The position numbers and the translations under genes were made by a program. The notes below the pieces were generated by a model. It saw only the letters and a list, made by a program, of their open reading frames with translations. It did not search any database and was not told the DNA's origin. DNA of 29,095 bases from Candidatus Fraserbacteria bacterium (GTDB taxonomy: Bacteria > Bipolaricaulota > Bipolaricaulia > RBG-16-55-9): assembly GCA_037442925.1 (NCBI GenBank), contig JBBIPG010000026.1:1-29095 (forward strand), written 5' to 3'. This document shows positions 21,745 to 29,095 of the stretch, piece by piece. Positions within the stretch are counted from its first letter, which is position 1. Each line of letters opens with the position of its first letter.

Positions 21745-23376
21745 TCAGAGCTTGTTGAGCAAGATAGAGATGCGGTCCCCCTCGAAGTGAACGATCACAA
21801 GATCTAAGAACCCGTCCTGATCGAAGTCGCCCGCTACCAGCGCCACAGGACTGCCATCGGCCGGGTACTCTCGGGCTTGTGATAGCGTACGGAATTGCCC
21901 AGCGCCATCGTTCAGAAGCACCGTCACCGTGTTGCTGCCGCTATTGGCAGAAGCCAAGTCCAAAGAGCCATCACCGTCGAAGTCCCCCACGGCCAATCCA
22001 TGTACACCTTCCCCTACGGGTATATCAGGAGCCAAGCTAAAGCGCCCCCGACCCGCTCCTAACAACACAGAGAGGTTCGCACTCTTGGAATTGGCGACTA
22101 CGAGATCCAGCCGAGCATCCCCATCCAGATCAAGAGAAGCCAGAGCCACCGGCCCCTCACCCACAGCACGCAGCCCCCCCTCGCGAAAGCCTCCCACACC
22201 ATCTCCAAAGAGCAGCGTGATCGAATCCCCATGGAAGTTGGCCACGGCCAGATCCGGCCGCCCATCTTCATCAAAGTCGCCGGAGACCAGTGCCGCTGGC
22301 CAGCGACCCACCGGAGTCGTCGAGGCCGTCTCAAAGAGACCTTGCCCGTTGCCCAATAGCACCGTCACTTGATCGGAGCCCGCGTCAGCAACTGCCAGAT
22401 CACTCGAGCCATCCCGGTTGAAGTCAGCCGAGGTGATGGCCGAGGCCCAGCGGCCAATACGGAGCTCATCTCCTTCTCGGAATCCTCGGCTCCCATCGTT
22501 CCATAGCAGGCGAACGCTTCCAGAGTCTAAGTGAGCGACGGCCAGATCCAGTCTCCCATCTCCGTCCCAATCGGCAGATGTTAGAGCTACCGGACGGCGC
22601 CCGACAGAGATCCTTTCTCCGCGGATCAAAGAACCTGCCCTTCCCCCACCGAAAAACAGCGAGACTTCATTGCTCTCACTGTTTGCTACGGCGACATCCA
22701 GCCTCCCATCTCCATCCAAATCGGCAGTGACCGCGCTCACAGGAGAGCGTCCCACGCGCAGATCTTGTGCGCTCATAAAATCGAGCACATGCACCGTCAA
22801 GGTCGCTGTACTGATAGCCCCACCCTGATCTGTGATGGTGAGTTGAACCGTAAAGCGGCCCCCTTGAGCATAGGTGTGTGTAGTGCGTGGTCCACTGGCG
22901 CTCTGCCCATCGCCGAAATTCCACTGGTAGCTCGTGATCGCATCGCCCTCCGGATCGAACGAGACGGAGCCATCAAAAGTGACCATCAGCGGTGGCCACC
23001 CCCTGATGGGCGAGGCGGTGAAAATCGCTTGCGGGGGTGGATTCCCCACTACGATGCGCACTCGATCCTGACCACGGGCCCCGAATGGATCACTGACCGT
23101 GAGCGTGGCAATATACACTCCATTTCGTCTGTACAGATGAGTGACCTTTGGCCCTTCGGCTCGTGTCCCGTCCCCAAAATCCCACTCATAGCGTATGAGC
23201 AACCCTTGGGGATCGAAGGAGAGAGAGCCGTCGAACTCCACCCGAAGCGGAGCGTCCCCTCGGGTCGGTGCGGCTTCGATAATGGCCACCGGCGGTTGGT
23301 TCCCCGTGAGAAGATCACAGCCAGTTAAGGCCAGCATCAAGAGCACATAGAGCCCAATCCCTCGCCATCTCACCAT
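21745..23376 (-). CDS. Lipoprotein with two PKD domains and an FG-GAP/VCBS beta-propeller
   Basis: Lipobox LTG-C; two YxWxFGDG motifs; seven D-[FLW]-[DN]-x-D-[GA]-x-x-D-[LV] repeats. Confidence 0.93.
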   Translation of the reverse strand: MVRWRGIGLYVLLMLALTGCDLLTGNQPPVAIIEAAPTRGDAPLRVEFDGSLSFDPQGLLIRYEWDFGDGTRAEGPKVTHLYRRNGVYIATLTVSDPFGARGQDRVRIVVGNPPPQAIFTASPIRGWPPLMVTFDGSVSFDPEGDAITSYQWNFGDGQSASGPRTTHTYAQGGRFTVQLTITDQGGAISTATLTVHVLDFMSAQDLRVGRSPVSAVTADLDGDGRLDVAVANSESNEVSLFFGGGRAGSLIRGERISVGRRPVALTSADWDGDGRLDLAVAHLDSGSVRLLWNDGSRGFREGDELRIGRWASAITSADFNRDGSSDLAVADAGSDQVTVLLGNGQGLFETASTTPVGRWPAALVSGDFDEDGRPDLAVANFHGDSITLLFGDGVGGFREGGLRAVGEGPVALASLDLDGDARLDLVVANSKSANLSVLLGAGRGRFSLAPDIPVGEGVHGLAVGDFDGDGSLDLASANSGSNTVTVLLNDGAGQFRTLSQAREYPADGSPVALVAGDFDQDGFLDLVIVHFEGDRISILLNKL

Positions 23377-23414
23377 CTGCCTCCCCCCCCCACAGTGCGC
23401 AATTTGCTGAGAGA

Positions 23415-23444
23415 ATCATAGAAGCGACGGCGAGGATTTGTCAA
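23415..23444 (-). promoter_or_regulatory. Promoter of the PKD/FG-GAP lipoprotein gene
   Basis: TTGACA-N18-TATGAT. Confidence 0.75.
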
Positions 23445-23456
23445 CAGAGAATTGCT

Positions 23457-25643
23457 CTAGCGCAATACGATGAATTTCTTGATTTGCCTCGTGAGGATCT
23501 GACCGTTCAATCCACGCACCGTTACCACGTAGAAATAGAGCCCATTGGCCCAGCTTCTACCCCAAGCGATAGCGAGTCGATCCCCATGCACCCAGCCGCT
23601 GTCAAAGCGCTGCTTACCCGATAGATCGAAGACCTGAACCTGCAGGTTTTGAAGAGCACTCCCCTTCGCCTGAAAGAGAATGGACCCAGAGCTCATCTGA
23701 ACAGTAACCGAGCTAGGCGGAAGGATTTCAAGCCACTCATCACCCTCGATGGGCTCTCCATTCATGCTCCCCGTGAGTCGATAGCGACCGGGTTCGACGG
23801 CCTCGGAAATAGAGAGTCGATAGATGACTTCGCGCGCTTCTCCCGGACCGATGGTAGGCCAGACCCACTGCGCTTGATTCAGGTCTTTCATGAACGTTAT
23901 GCGCGCATCTCCTGGATCTATGGTCTCTAGGGAGAAACCCGCAGGGAGCTGTTCACTCAGTGTAAGGCTTCCAAAGGTCGCTGCGGGCATGTGCACGGCA
24001 ATGCGCACTGTCACGCTCTCCCCGACTGTCACCTTCGAGTCCGACAGAGAACGAAGAGCCTGTGGTTGCCCCAGGAAGAGCTGGAGCTTTCCGGCTCCGC
24101 TCTCGACATCCGGCCCTAAAGGCTCAAGATCAATGGCATTGCGCTTCACCGCCTCCCAGAGCTGAGTCAGACTCCAATCGGGATGCTGAGACAGCAATAG
24201 GGCTGCAGCTCCTGCTACATGGGGTGCGGAGAACGAGGTACCAAAGTCACCTCGCACGCCATCGGGGGCCACCAGATCCGGCTTGATCCGCCCGTCGCTC
24301 GTCGGTCCCCGCGCACTGAAGCCTTCTACGATTCCCTCCTCCCAGAGAGAGGAACTCACAGCCCCTACGGCCAAGGCACACGTGCAATCCGCCGGGGCCA
24401 TCACACTCCCATGAGGGATGGCCGGTGTGATCTCATGTCCCAGACTGAAGAGCTTCAGATTCACGGCTCGACTGACGCGCTTGGCTCGCACCTTCAGTTG
24501 GTATACACCCGGATCTTCTACCAGATAGTCGAGCGACTCACGCGGTGGGTCCAAGCCCTGCTGGCGCGTCTCAGAGGAAGCGACAATCTCCCCTGCTCCA
24601 TTGAACAAGAAGAGATCGAGATCTTGAGCCGTCTGAGGCCAGTCATCCCACACCAAGACCAGACTGATCACCCCGCCAAAGCCGGCCCAGATGACCAGAT
24701 TCTCGCGTTCGTAGCCGAACTCCGTCCAGCCATCGCGGTCGCGATCCTGGAAGCGCCCCATCCAATGGCTCTCGGCTTGATTGCCCGCGGCATTCACCCA
24801 AAGTATCCCAGCGTCAGCGGCCCGACGTGCGATCTCATCGACGAGACCCGTGCCATCGCCAAAGTTCGTGTCAAACCAGCCGAGCGAGTGATTGATGATG
24901 CGAACCCCCAGGCGAATCGCATCCCGAACGGCGTTCTCCAACTCGACTTCCGTTCCCTCTTCCCCCAGACTCATCAAGACAAGCTGAGCTTCCGGAGCCA
25001 TCTCATGAACAATACGAGCCACTCGAGTCCCATGATCTGAGCCCATCTCAAGTCCTTGGCCGCCGTAATCTTTCGTTTGGTAGATGGCTCCGGCTTCGAT
25101 CCACCCCTTGAGAATCGCCTCGCTGAGCCCCTGAAAGCCGGCGTCGATGACAGCCACTCTGATCCCTTGGCCGCGGAAGCCATAGCTATGAAAGAGCAGC
25201 GCCCCGGTGGGAAGGGTTCCCGTGCTGTAGTCGATATGCCTTAGAGGCCGAAACGTGTAGGGGCGGCGGATGAAAGAAATTCCCGATAACTGGGCGATCT
25301 CACGCAGATGCCTGAGAGGCAGTCGCGCTTTCAGCAGATACTCGCTCTCCGCTTCGATGATACCTCCTAGAAATCGAAGTGGAGCCGGATCGAACTGGCT
25401 TGATCTGCCTTCGGGCTCAATGATGACCCGGACATATTGACCGCTCGGGTCGAGGGAGATGCCGTGTTCTTGTGCCCAGATGGAGGCTCTTGGGCCGGTG
25501 AAGTCGAGCAGTTGCAGCAGAGCCCCTTCAATTCGAGCAGGAGTAGAGTTGCTCTCGTCCGCGTTCGCCCCTGATAGATAAAAGAGATTCAGACTCCAGA
25601 TCCCGAGGAGGAGTAGGGTGAGTGGTCGAGGTTTCATTTTCAT
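23457..25643 (-). CDS. Secreted S8 peptidase with T9SS type-A-like C-terminal domain
   Basis: Triad VAVIDAG, HGTRVA, GTSFSAPH; C-terminus VQVFDLSGK...ANGLYFYVV...KKFIVLR. Confidence 0.92.
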   Translation of the reverse strand: MKMKPRPLTLLLLGIWSLNLFYLSGANADESNSTPARIEGALLQLLDFTGPRASIWAQEHGISLDPSGQYVRVIIEPEGRSSQFDPAPLRFLGGIIEAESEYLLKARLPLRHLREIAQLSGISFIRRPYTFRPLRHIDYSTGTLPTGALLFHSYGFRGQGIRVAVIDAGFQGLSEAILKGWIEAGAIYQTKDYGGQGLEMGSDHGTRVARIVHEMAPEAQLVLMSLGEEGTEVELENAVRDAIRLGVRIINHSLGWFDTNFGDGTGLVDEIARRAADAGILWVNAAGNQAESHWMGRFQDRDRDGWTEFGYERENLVIWAGFGGVISLVLVWDDWPQTAQDLDLFLFNGAGEIVASSETRQQGLDPPRESLDYLVEDPGVYQLKVRAKRVSRAVNLKLFSLGHEITPAIPHGSVMAPADCTCALAVGAVSSSLWEEGIVEGFSARGPTSDGRIKPDLVAPDGVRGDFGTSFSAPHVAGAAALLLSQHPDWSLTQLWEAVKRNAIDLEPLGPDVESGAGKLQLFLGQPQALRSLSDSKVTVGESVTVRIAVHMPAATFGSLTLSEQLPAGFSLETIDPGDARITFMKDLNQAQWVWPTIGPGEAREVIYRLSISEAVEPGRYRLTGSMNGEPIEGDEWLEILPPSSVTVQMSSGSILFQAKGSALQNLQVQVFDLSGKQRFDSGWVHGDRLAIAWGRSWANGLYFYVVTVRGLNGQILTRQIKKFIVLR

Positions 25644-25647
25644 TCAT

Positions 25648-26712
25648 TTAGAACTCAAAGGAGCGCCCAGCTCTTAGTCCTCCCTGCCGTAGGCCGCTCT
25701 GCGACATCCAAGAGAGTTTTCCACTGAGCTGGAAAAGAGCCAACTGAACATTGCCAGAGAGATCGAGAAGCCACAACGCCGGCGAGCCTGTGACCGTGCC
25801 CCCTAGCTTAAGACCCGATCGGTTCACATTCCCCGTGAGCAAGAGACTGGAAAACCCCTCCGGCCCCACACCCAGCCGGCCTTGCCAGAGATCACCAGTG
25901 CCTGTGGGCATCAACAAGCCATCTACGCTCAGATCTTGCCAGCCTTCCGGGCTGAAGCTCAGAGACCCTCCCAAGTGATTAGCGCCAAGCCCGAACTTAC
26001 GCGTCCCACCCACCTTGAGCTCCTGCCAGCCCGAAGGCGTGAACTGCAGTGACACATCCGCATCGAACTCCCCCAGGGAGCGACTCAAACTCAGCGCTGC
26101 ATCTAGCAATTGCGAATCGTCCGCAAGGAGATCCAACTGCCCAGAGAGTCCGAAAGTCATCTCATTGAACGAATGCTGAGCGGAGAACTGAAGAGGCTTC
26201 CAACCGGAGGGATCGATCTGCCCGTCCAGAGTCAGGCTCTCGCTCTCCCAATGGAACTTCTGACTCCATGTGGCGGCCTTGCCTTCCAGAACCTGTGCCT
26301 GTCCTTCAAGACTTAGCCCAAAGCCCGGGGGCTTCCATAGGCTCTTTAGGGTCCAGGTCCAACCCTCTTGGAAAGAGAGGCTCCCTTGGAGGTCCAGCTG
26401 GAAGTCAGGTCGCTGACGGGAGGCTTGTAGCTGCAAGACGAGCCCCTCTTGGAAGTTCAGCCCCAATCCCACGCGGTCTTCCCCAAAGTTCAGCGTCTCG
26501 GATAGGCTCCAGCGCAGACGCTCTCCCTGATAGCCCGCATGGGCAAAGAAGCTCCAGATTCCTTGGCTGAGCGTGGCTTCCACGTAGAGTTCCACTCCGG
26601 AACCCACAGTGAAGTTCGCTCCCAAAGCGGCATCCAGGCGTGCATTTTCTTCTGCCAAGCCGCTCCAGGGCAGAAGGAACACCACAAGCACTGCACACCA
26701 AGCTGGTCTCAT
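25648..26712 (-). CDS. Putative outer-membrane beta-barrel protein
   Basis: Signal peptide; alternating amphipathic Gly/Leu/Ser/aromatic strands; terminal Phe (RSFEF); 4 bp upstream of the S8 gene. Confidence 0.65.
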   Translation of the reverse strand: MRPAWCAVLVVFLLPWSGLAEENARLDAALGANFTVGSGVELYVEATLSQGIWSFFAHAGYQGERLRWSLSETLNFGEDRVGLGLNFQEGLVLQLQASRQRPDFQLDLQGSLSFQEGWTWTLKSLWKPPGFGLSLEGQAQVLEGKAATWSQKFHWESESLTLDGQIDPSGWKPLQFSAQHSFNEMTFGLSGQLDLLADDSQLLDAALSLSRSLGEFDADVSLQFTPSGWQELKVGGTRKFGLGANHLGGSLSFSPEGWQDLSVDGLLMPTGTGDLWQGRLGVGPEGFSSLLLTGNVNRSGLKLGGTVTGSPALWLLDLSGNVQLALFQLSGKLSWMSQSGLRQGGLRAGRSFEF

Positions 26713-26731: not shown

Positions 26732-27298
26732 TCAGAAGATCTCCGCCAGCGGAATCTCCAACCCCGCCAGCAGGGAAGATCTCAAGACTTGCCGCTTCTC
26801 GTAGAGTCCCGCCCGCCGATAGCCCCTTGTCCCCAGCTGAAGCACCTCGATCGTTTCCATCTCGGGATCGACCAGCCAGTACTCCTTCACCCCATGGCGC
26901 GCATAGAGGGTGCGCTTGTACGTGCGATCCTTCTCTGCGGTAGTAGGCGAAAGGACTTCCACGACCAGATCCGGTGCGCCTCGGATCTCATCTGCATAGA
27001 TAATGCCGTGCCTGGCCTCAGAGATGAACAAGATGTCCGGTTGGACCACACGTTCGTCTCCGGCTTCTCCGAGCACCACATCCAAAGGTGCTACGTAGAC
27101 TCGGCCTACCTGATGCTCCCGCACAAATCGATACAGAAACGAGGCCAGTCCGATCGAGATCCACTGATGGGGCTCTCCCGGCGAAGGGGGCATGGGGACC
27201 AACTCTCCTTCTAAGAGTTCGTACCGCTCACGCTCTGAGTACGGCAGGCTCTTGTAGTCCTCATAGGTGAACTTGATTGGGGTCTGCACTTCTCCCAT
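26732..27298 (-). CDS. Uma2 (DUF820) family PD-(D/E)XK endonuclease-like protein, copy B
   Basis: RYELLEG, QPD, APDLVVEVLSP, YARHGVKEYWLVDP. Confidence 0.93.
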   Translation of the reverse strand: MGEVQTPIKFTYEDYKSLPYSERERYELLEGELVPMPPSPGEPHQWISIGLASFLYRFVREHQVGRVYVAPLDVVLGEAGDERVVQPDILFISEARHGIIYADEIRGAPDLVVEVLSPTTAEKDRTYKRTLYARHGVKEYWLVDPEMETIEVLQLGTRGYRRAGLYEKRQVLRSSLLAGLEIPLAEIF

Positions 27299-27373
27299 GA
27301 GCGATCACCGCTTGGAGTCTACTTCCTTCTCTTGAGGATGTCAACGAAATTAAGCTGCCTAGAACCATCCGTT
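27250..27373. repeat. 124-bp exact direct repeat (Uma2 5' end and promoter), copy 1
   Basis: Identical to 28972-29095 (offset 1722). Confidence 0.95.
27316..27344 (-). promoter_or_regulatory. Sigma70-type promoter of Uma2-B
   Basis: TTGACA-N17-TAGACT. Confidence 0.8.
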
Positions 27374-27410
27374 AATCCGTTCTCATCTCACATCCGTTGA
27401 CAGATAGCCC

Positions 27411-27448
27411 CAAAAGCCAAAGCCCCCGAGCGTATTGCCGGGGGGCTT
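27411..27448 (-). terminator. Intrinsic terminator, copy 1
   Basis: AAGCCCCC...GGGGGCTT stem followed by TGGCTTTT on the minus strand. Confidence 0.75.
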
Positions 27449-27588
27449 CTCAACTCCGTCCGTGATTTAGCTGTCAGCTTTCAGCCCTCAGCTAGCGATC
27501 AGCTACGCCTTTGCTGACTGCTGATCGCTGACCGCTGACAGCTCTTACCGCTGGACGACCAACTTTCTGACCTCGGTGCGGAGGACCT
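27417..27588. repeat. ~172-bp repeat unit, copy 1 (CTD-gene tail + heptamer hairpin + terminator)
   Basis: Matches 28258-28428 (offset 840); 27455-27561 is identical. Confidence 0.95.
27545..27586 (-). pseudogene. Orphan 13-codon tail of a CTD-bearing gene
   Basis: Translates VLRTEVRKLVVQR*; no start codon. Confidence 0.8.
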
Positions 27589-27974
27589 TATAGGCTCTCC
27601 ACTTCGCCGGACTCTTTGATGATCCGATCCTTCGTGATGATGGCTGCTGCATAGGAGCGTGCTGTTGCTGCGATAATCCGGTCATGAATCTCTACGATGC
27701 CTTTTAGCTTCACGGTCTCCTCGAAGATCTCCGGGCTAAAGCCGATGATCTCAAAACTTGGCTTCTCCTTGATGAGTCTATACATCTCTGGAAAATCGAA
27801 TTCGATTTTTTGTTTCTCGGCAATATCTAAGGACTCTGAAAGCACAATGGTCGGTACAAGGAGCCTACCGCCTTGTATCAGGCATTCATCAATAACTTCT
27901 TTGACTTTGCGCTTCAACCTCTTGCTGCCGATGAAGTACCAGATTAACGTATGGGTGTCCAGCACGTAATTCAC
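27588..27974 (-). CDS. PIN-domain (VapC-like) toxin
   Basis: YVLDTHTLIW, VPTIVLSE, EIHDRIIAATA, IITKD; GTG start directly after the upstream stop. Confidence 0.92.
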   Translation of the reverse strand: MNYVLDTHTLIWYFIGSKRLKRKVKEVIDECLIQGGRLLVPTIVLSESLDIAEKQKIEFDFPEMYRLIKEKPSFEIIGFSPEIFEETVKLKGIVEIHDRIIAATARSYAAAIITKDRIIKESGEVESL

Positions 27975-28193
27975 TTAGAGGTCCTCCAAATCCCGAAAGA
28001 GGGATCGTTTGGCTTGCTCGATCATCTCCTCAGTGATATCTCCCCCTTTCACACTGCCATAGAGGGAAGATGCTCTCTTATGGCGGGTCAATTTGGTATC
28101 CCTGATTAGCTCACGCTTCAAGAACTCTAACTCCCTTTCAATGGCTCGGATTCTCTCCATGAGTACTTTCGTATCTAAGCCGGTTCGGCTCAT
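27975..28193 (-). CDS. Putative cognate antitoxin (72 aa)
   Basis: Small gene coupled upstream of PIN; coiled N-terminal half, then SLYGSVKGGDITEEMIEQAKRSLF; SD GAGGTG before ATG 28193. Confidence 0.75.
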   Translation of the reverse strand: MSRTGLDTKVLMERIRAIERELEFLKRELIRDTKLTRHKRASSLYGSVKGGDITEEMIEQAKRSLFRDLEDL

Positions 28194-28214
28194 AAGGTCA
28201 CCACCTCTGCAACC

Positions 28215-28244
28215 ATCATAATCAAGGGGAGATCCCCCTGCCAC
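28215..28244 (-). promoter_or_regulatory. TA promoter with palindromic operator candidate
   Basis: GTGGCA-N18-TATGAT; GGGGA-ga-TCCCC (28226-28237) in the spacer. Confidence 0.55.
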
Positions 28245-28253
28245 TAAGAGGGG

Positions 28254-28288
28254 AAAACCAAAGCCCCCGAGCGTGCGCCCGGGGGCTT
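28254..28288 (-). terminator. Intrinsic terminator, copy 2
   Basis: AAGCCCCCG...CGGGGGCTT stem followed by TGGTTTT on the minus strand. Confidence 0.8.
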
Positions 28289-28428
28289 CTCAGTTCCGTC
28301 CGTGATTTAGCTGTCAGCTTTCAGCCCTCAGCTAGCGATCAGCTACGCCTTTGCTGACTGCTGATCGCTGACCGCTGACAGCTCTTACCGCTGGACGACC
28401 AGCTTTCTGACCTCAGTGCGGAGGACCT
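28258..28428. repeat. ~171-bp repeat unit, copy 2
   Basis: Matches 27417-27588. Confidence 0.95.
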
Positions 28429-28465
28429 GGCCGTCGTAGCCCTTGGCCTGGCCGAGGTAGAGGTA
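28385..28465 (-). pseudogene. Orphan 26-codon tail of a CTD-bearing gene
   Basis: Translates YLYLGQAKGYDGQVLRTEVRKLVVQR*; aligns without gaps to the last 26 aa of the 23457-25643 peptidase. Confidence 0.85.
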
Positions 28466-29020
28466 TTAGAAGATCTCCGCCAGAGGAATCTCCAACCCCG
28501 CCAGCAGGGAAGATCTCAAGACTTGCCGCTTCTCGTAGAGTCCCGCCCGCCGATAGCCCCTTGCTCCCAGCTGAAGCACCTCGATCGTCTCCATCTCGGG
28601 GTCGACCAGCCAGTATTCTTTCACGCCATAGCGGGCGTAGAGGGTGCGCTTGAGCGTGCGGTCCCGCTGAGTCGTGGCTGGTGAGAAGATTTCCACCACC
28701 AGATCTGGTGCGCCTTGGACTACGCCCTCGCGCACGATCCCCAGACGCACCTTCGAGATGAACATCAGGTCCGGCTGCACAACATCATGCTCGGAGAGCA
28801 CGACGTCCAGAGGGGCAAAGCGGACTTCTCCCAGCCCTCTTGCGCGTATATGTGAATCGAGAAATCGGAATAAAGCCGCAGAGATCGATTGATGAAACCA
28901 GCTGGGTGCTGGGACCATCACCAACTCCCCCTCCAACAGCTCATAGCGCCGGGTTTCCGACTCCGGCAAGTTCTTGTAGTCCTCATAGGTGAACTTGATT
29001 GGGGTCTGCACTTCTCCCAT
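28466..29020 (-). CDS. Uma2 (DUF820) family protein, copy A
   Basis: RYELLEG, QPD, APDLVVEIFSP, YARYGVKEYWLVDP. Confidence 0.93.
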   Translation of the reverse strand: MGEVQTPIKFTYEDYKNLPESETRRYELLEGELVMVPAPSWFHQSISAALFRFLDSHIRARGLGEVRFAPLDVVLSEHDVVQPDLMFISKVRLGIVREGVVQGAPDLVVEIFSPATTQRDRTLKRTLYARYGVKEYWLVDPEMETIEVLQLGARGYRRAGLYEKRQVLRSSLLAGLEIPLAEIF

Positions 29021-29095
29021 GAGCGATCACCGCTTGGAGTCTACTTCCTTCTCTTGAGGATGTCAACGAAATTAAGCTGCCTAGAACCATCCGTT
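28972..29095. repeat. 124-bp exact direct repeat, copy 2 (cut by the window end); includes promoter 29038-29066
   Basis: Identical to 27250-27373. Confidence 0.95.

Follow-up and report, generated by a model that had tools for sequence, protein, structure and literature searches.

The window analysed here, a stretch of 29,095 nt that constitutes the entire contig C26 (JBBIPG010000026.1) of a Candidatus Fraserbacteria assembly (GCA_037442925.1), carries towards its right-hand end a stack of small toxin-antitoxin (TA) and Uma2 modules set apart by copies of the end of a host gene. We consider it likely, with a probability of roughly 0.6, that recombination by the host itself produced this stack in repeated rounds of 'insertion with long target duplication'. 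In the route that we propose, incoming DNA of a related lineage would carry the host gene end in that lineage's allele, followed by its terminator and a module, and would pair by homology with the resident gene end. The second joint, near the stop codon of the module, would form without homology, either through a small circle or by a one-sided join. The host gene would remain whole upstream; behind the module, the second allele of its end would persist as a stub. With every event, the homology would grow by about 100-180 nt, giving later modules a place to recombine and neighbours the means to exchange parts, and addiction together with transcriptional insulation by the terminator would retain the modules. 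These steps are suggested by the anatomy of the array, its recurrence at other genes, its variable cargo, the mosaic structure of its Uma2 genes and an excess of synonymous differences between stubs and intact genes. How small TA modules that carry no mobility gene come to occupy scattered places in chromosomes is not known to have been settled.

Organisation of the array

On the minus strand, the order is Uma2A, repeat A, a 72-aa open reading frame (ORF) with a PIN gene, repeat B, Uma2B, a 354-aa gene and an S8 protease gene; the layout and coordinates of the initial annotation were all borne out on re-examination. As the window is the whole contig, the array is truncated by the assembly edge. 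Uma2A (28466-29020, 184 aa; PF05685, E 5.5e-38) is a putative PD-(D/E)XK nuclease, and Uma2B (26732-27298, 188 aa) matches the same family (E 1e-39). Between the repeat copies lies an insert of about 0.67 kb that holds an antitoxin-like gene and a PIN gene only, without a mobility gene. The PIN gene (27588-27974) codes for a PIN/VapC-like ribonuclease toxin of 128 aa (PF01850, E 1.2e-13). The 72-aa ORF coupled to it (27975-28193) has no Pfam match over the cut-off and is labelled a putative antitoxin from its position only; its homologues stand before PIN genes at loci L023, L044 and L049. The GC contents of the antitoxin-like ORF and the PIN gene are 0.48 and 0.465, vs 0.56 for the genome.

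Across 176 nt, the two repeats (28254-28428 and 27413-27588) share 94.9% identity and differ in 9 columns; they comprise the tail of a gene for a C-terminal sorting-like domain (CTD), a heptamer hairpin and a terminator-like stem-loop. Their length is variable: the tail part measures 81 nt in A and 44 nt in B. Stub A (28385-28465) corresponds to the final 26 codons and the stop of the CTD-bearing host gene; it abuts Uma2A, whose TAA runs into TAC CTC TAC of the repeat at 0 nt. It is followed by the long heptamer (TCAGC/GCTGA) hairpin (28309-28383), with z-scores of -6.4 when folded as RNA and -4.9 as DNA, and by a terminator-like stem-loop with a GGTTTT tail (28254-28289, z = -4.1). Stub B (27545-27588) is the final 44 nt of the same gene end and shares 1 nt with the TAA of the PIN gene; its hairpin (27469-27543) is identical to that of copy A, and its terminator-like stem-loop (27413-27448, z = -2.0) has a GGCTTTT tail. 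It had thus been rightly observed that the last stop codons sit on the repeat boundary and that both copies finish at the terminator U-tract, in GGYTTTT.

The initial annotation also gave each module its own promoter. Three sigma-70-like matches are indeed present, but 1.7 +/- 1.4 are expected by chance, and we treat them as consensus matches only: TTGACA-17-TAGACT before Uma2A (29038-29066, 10/12) and before Uma2B (27316-27344), and a weaker one before the antitoxin-like gene (28215-28244, 9/12). Between terminator B and the Uma2B promoter match lies the 5' half of a hairpin element of the ATCTGTCAACGGAT family (27365-27405), full copies of which are found on contigs C17, C20, C22 and C25.

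Recurrence of the footprint

The same footprint is present at other genes. Among the matches listed, repeat-flanked cases in this genome include a cas6 tail duplicated behind AbiEi/AbiEii (C6), a cyclase tail duplicated around a PIN pair (C10), a glycosyltransferase-like 5' gene end duplicated around VapBC (C17) and repeats around DUF433/DUF5615 (C1), alongside terminator arrays on C42 and C69. In genome G003, an hslU-like tail is located 4 nt past a PIN stop codon, and an Anaerolineales locus (L066) shows the same footprint. Within this genome, 4 of the 16 PIN genes stand between close direct repeats, vs 3 of 515 other ORFs of 100-200 aa (p = 2e-5), and two of these three are cargo themselves (DUF5615, aspartyl protease). 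With the window left out, 3 of 15 PIN genes do so (p = 3.5e-4). Across phyla, 10/69 PIN-homologue loci were repeat-flanked vs 5/129 shifted controls (p = 0.011), 11 of 80 loci having been dropped as too short and kin among the loci not being independent; without one order-level locus, the counts are 9/68 vs 4/128 (p = 0.013). As for the position of the stop codon, its distance to the repeat is 4, about 12, 21, 33, 42, 81 and 86 nt in seven other cases, and exact abutment, confined to the two window junctions, is therefore the near end of a tendency and no rule.

These cases bear on whether a dedicated system inserts cassettes at terminators, by recognising hairpins in an integron-like or REP/HUH-like fashion or through a cut by Uma2, and joins them precisely at stop codons. 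Such a system would account for the location of both window junctions at a stop codon, for the hairpin families found at module borders in many arrays and for a slot between CTD stop and terminator that holds different hairpins, or none, by lineage; five tyrosine-recombinase matches and one serine recombinase also exist in the genome, all on other contigs. Nevertheless, we find it quite improbable. The left junctions differ (81 vs 44 nt), repeat sequences vary between arrays, and the stub loci on C6, C10 and C17 have no hairpin. None of the five junction positions tested had either attC core (RYYYAAC ... GTTRRRY) within -15 to +230 nt, whereas the same patterns do match the integron region of C52, as the initial annotation had anticipated in stating that such cores are lacking. 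Neither a linked intact IntI nor attI was found in the window, and the integron integrase of this genome is internally deleted and on another contig. Searches of the one genome, whose assembly is 94% complete, returned no match for Y1/HUH (PF01797), reverse transcriptase (RT; PF00078), Avd-like (PF05635), GxxExxY (PF13366) or IS110 (PF01548) proteins. The earlier observation that no recombinase is visible in the window also stands, with no linked one found up to the contig edge, the sequence beyond being unseen. Because attC cores and a linked recombinase are lacking and the left junctions differ, the array is not an integron. The suggestion of a special CTD-targeted or integron-like system was not upheld, since the same footprint occurs at cas6, cyclase, hslU-like and RTX-repeat genes and at a glycosyltransferase-like 5' end. 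ComEC and DprA are both encoded in the genome; as common genes, they lend weak support to the proposed route.

Two other loci with recombinases deserve mention. C52:1-1989 is an integron remnant in which an IntI-like gene (210 aa, internally deleted, TIGR02249 below the cut-off) is followed by attI- and attC-like sites and a cassette up to the contig end. At C8:34702-37058 (L220), a full-length tyrosine recombinase gene directly precedes Uma2, a UPF0150/HicA pair and a CopG antitoxin; this appears to be a TA cluster with its own recombinase, and the scan revealed no flanking repeats.

It is tempting to speculate further that chromosomal TA and Uma2 modules across many phyla spread by a general route without recombinases, landing on conserved gene ends and terminators, with dispersed hairpins or the Uma2 nuclease itself steering both the break and the stop-precise join in this lineage and giving rise to self-extending integron-like arrays. 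We regard this broader scheme as decidedly unlikely.

Origin of the copies

The differences between stubs and intact genes provide information on where the stubs came from. In nine cases, hand-picked from the repeat matches, 56 of 95 such differences are synonymous, vs 0.40-0.45 expected after in-place duplication with the intact copy under constraint (p = 1.5e-4 to 5.5e-3). For the cyclase on C10, 11 of 12 differences are synonymous and the peptide is identical; the RTX stub of genome G006 was not alignable and was excluded from the count. In the window, stub B differs from stub A at two positions, both synonymous, and its two alleles are also present in other contigs of the sequencing runs X1, X2 and X3. 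The synonymous excess suggests that the stubs came from the allele of another lineage.

The Uma2 pair has a mosaic structure. Uma2A and Uma2B are 100% and 97% alike at their ends, the promoters and starts being identical and the C-terminal parts 97% so, and 54% alike in the middle, where each resembles copies in other genomes more (70-76%). From this mosaic and the synonymous excess, we infer probable homologous exchange with DNA of other lineages.

Alternatively, the tail, hairpin, terminator, promoter and Uma2 might have been duplicated in tandem in place, with subsequent deletion and gene conversion, part of one copy giving way to the antitoxin-PIN pair and no foreign allele of the host gene end being involved. 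The direct joining of the Uma2A stop to the tail resembles a tandem-duplication joint, the promoters and gene ends of the Uma2 pair are identical or nearly so, and the two tails differ at only two positions. We nevertheless deem it unlikely, as the Uma2 middles represent two older subtypes present in other genomes, the synonymous excess lies above the in-place null, the low-GC antitoxin-PIN pair must still come from outside, and there are other loci at which the stub has no paralogous cargo. More generally, a stub is a readable footprint, in which synonymous differences can separate a foreign allele from in-place decay, and the route is therefore testable on existing strain collections.

The site in related genomes

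The 354-aa gene downstream of the array (25648-26712, minus strand, no Pfam match) served as an anchor to locate the matching site in relatives and was found in 5 of 35 genomes, this one included. G008 has a gene, a terminator and the anchor, without a module. In G007, the anchor is preceded by a CopG-like antitoxin gene and another small ORF. In G006, three modules precede it, lying between copies of another terminator, namely a small gene pair, DUF5678 with an aspartyl-protease-like gene, and a Uma2 of the same subtype as Uma2B, behind which lies a stub of the upstream RTX-repeat gene. The contig of G004 starts inside the anchor gene and gave no information. In these relatives, what precedes the anchor gene thus ranges from other cargo to no module at all. 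The upstream half of the G006 locus corresponds to contig C69 of this genome, and blocks therefore seem to have been transferred from one array to another.

G015 and G034 contain long arrays on this plan too, every array having a repeat of its own. In G015 (L016:4650-15805), an 11-kb region that ends at recG contains four Uma2 copies along with BrnT/CopG, DUF433/DUF5615 and other pairs, its modules being set apart by GAATCACGG hairpins and a repeated terminator. Loci L023, C69 and L020 are repeated-terminator arrays with accessory genes in between.

Beyond the contig edge

The Uma2 upstream sequence is still repeating at the window edge, as first reported: positions 29002-29095 are identical to 27280-27373, and a half hairpin remnant of the ATCTGTCAACGGAT family (29087-29095) marks a third junction, cut by the contig end. 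In run X1, an unbroken contig over 27280-27484 has a depth of 24 vs about 14 for unique parts. This implies a third copy, upstream of Uma2A, of terminator B, the AACGGAT half hairpin and the Uma2 promoter, in line with the expectation that further units may follow past 29095. With this third copy and the variable cargo in relatives, the initial view of the locus as an accretion site, at which small TA or nuclease modules gather behind a duplicated CTD gene end, is retained. Run X1 contains 0.94 of the stretch's words; it may be the source data and is hence not independent evidence. Runs X2-X4 contain only small shares of the stretch.

Loose ends of X1 at 28465 run on into an intact ANGV-type CTD, so a parent-type CTD gene appears to exist in that sample. 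The intact parent gene envisaged by the initial annotation is thus represented by a gene end in X1 and is absent from the assembly. The exact tail patterns had 0 matches in metagenome contigs and 0 in viral contigs, in collections that may lack very near genomes. Loose ends of X1 and one joint suggest an arrangement of tail and terminator followed by another gene, none of it assembled as an empty site. In one X1 contig, which may stem from another organism or locus, 13 letters link the tail to terminator A where the array has its 80-nt hairpin; in X2 and X3, the hairpin in this slot is shorter, these sequences maybe also coming from other organisms or loci.

Could the array be partly an assembly artefact, in which modules of co-occurring strains were strung together through shared repeats? 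The contig terminates within a repeat, X1 includes related organisms with similar tails, and no single X1 contig spans the array. However, a separately assembled X1 contig crosses the joint between the Uma2A stop and the tail (28422-28514), and another leads from terminator A via the PIN gene into stub B (27560-28283), with only 29 nt on the stub side, which is under the 31-nt rule. In the X1 contigs, the modules and unique parts have depths of 13.6-17.4, vs 14.6 for the flank, and relatives have long assembled contigs with the same arrangement. An artefact of this kind is, in our view, highly improbable.

Weighing the proposed route

Several points weigh against insertion with long target duplication. 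In an order-wide test with one best locus per genome, 3/29 PIN loci and 1/26 Uma2 loci were repeat-flanked vs 1/26 SmpB controls, after 1 PIN, 4 Uma2 and 4 SmpB loci had been dropped as too short; the footprint is therefore a minority state and is not enriched in this test (not significant). In the window, neither junction is more than 1 nt away from a stop codon, a position that the favoured model does not predict. The hand-picking of the nine cases affects the synonymous count, and the same signal would arise had the allele of the intact gene been replaced afterwards. The match of the site to G006, G007 and G008 is one-sided, as an RTX-repeat gene, not this CTD gene, is located upstream in G006 and G008, and the G007 contig ends before that side. 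Blastn, tblastn and contig-end scans did not detect an intact parent CTD gene in the assembly, and an empty site with this exact repeat was not obtained in assembled form. Lastly, the X1 contig depths (13.6-17.4 vs 14.6 for the flank) give no sign of excess circles.

Tails and dispersed hairpins

The coding tail of the repeat reads YLYLGQAKGYDGQVLRTEVRKLVVQR* and is like the tails of other exported proteins in the genome. A domain of the type ANGVYLY...KLVVLR ends many such proteins (window 21745-26712 and about ten other contigs). It weakly resembles the T9SS sorting signal, with TIGR04183 and PF13585 below the cut-off; likewise, the corresponding domain at the C-terminus of the S8 protease in the window matches TIGR04183 only weakly, below the cut-off.

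The heptamer hairpin belongs to a dispersed repeat family of the genome, with related copies on C1, C52, C60 and C85. Two copies are free of cargo: one (C52:11799-11879) lies between what we take to be two ribosomal-protein genes, and the other (C60:365-424) just before a presumed 5S rRNA sequence. A second dispersed family (ATCTGTCAACGGAT...ATCCGTTGACAGAT), with 29 motif matches in the genome, is found whole or as halves right behind terminators and before module promoters. An Rfam search of the stretch gave nothing over the gathering score, the best match being His_leader at 24.8 bits vs a cut-off of 49. Between the CTD stop and a related terminator, the hairpin family differs from lineage to lineage, or no hairpin is present (L030:1550-1600; L023:7925-8000; X1 joint 28303-27544), as if hairpins came and went independently of cargo. 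Of note, one of the two closest antitoxin-PIN homologues (69%) is located in L044, a 3382-nt record titled Enterobacteriaceae, a label that looks doubtful, where it is surrounded by GACCAAATC-type tandem repeats and other TA-like pairs. Arrays of this type break assemblies and yield false short ORFs, which matters for the annotation of this lineage.

Comparison with known systems

Integron arrays and CALINs consist of tandem one- or two-gene, TA-rich modules with stop codons beside a palindromic repeat, and the array shares these features. Unlike them, it has no RYYYAAC/GTTRRRY cores, no fixed crossover and no linked IntI, and its modules have promoter matches and terminators. Similar repeats are known as REP/REPIN-like hairpins and as 'terminon' terminator arrays, no paper on terminons being found in the literature searched. 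Multi-copy hairpins just behind stop codons and terminators are shared with the former, and repeated-terminator arrays with accessory genes in between, such as L023, C69 and L020, with the latter. In contrast to REP/REPIN systems, RAYT/Y1 is unmatched in this genome (PF01797), and the window's repeat differs from both in also including a coding stub.

The PeSL cassettes of T4-type phages are composed of repeats of a terminator stem-loop and a promoter that shuffle genes by homologous recombination, as described in Arbiol 2010 (PMC2839356). Common to both cases are repeated terminators between small genes, which in the present array would likewise serve as homology without a dedicated recombinase, and the repeated terminators and mosaic Uma2 pair would fit shuffling of this kind. 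However, PeSLs are from phages and the present array from a cellular chromosome; here, the promoter lies outside the shared 176-nt repeat, one per module, and the repeat carries a coding stub and is specific to each array. Mini-circles were shown for PeSLs, whereas here only contigs were read, and their depths are flat.

The closest parallel is long target duplication. Furuta 2010 (PMC2853133) describes restriction-modification (RM) genes inserted in this manner, often across start or stop sites: the module has no mobility gene, the flanking direct repeats exceed 30 bp and vary in length, the host gene is left intact, inserts are below 20 kb, and most reports are from naturally competent species. 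A double-strand-break idea has been offered for RM systems. In the portion available of a 2013 review (PMC3874152), long target duplication is given for RM systems, and TA mobility is assigned to mobile elements. We found no account of TA modules with long target duplication, or of such arrays in this lineage, in the literature searched, which did not cover subscription papers and supplements. The present array has direct repeats of 176 nt at 95% identity with tails of 81 and 44 nt, and an insert of about 0.67 kb without a mobility gene, both within the limits given in PMC2853133. It differs from the RM cases of that source in that its RNase toxins do not suit the double-strand-break idea, the events repeat into arrays at terminators, and the two copies differ mainly at synonymous sites. 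With PIN-type TA and Uma2 modules as cargo in place of RM genes, it would extend the class.

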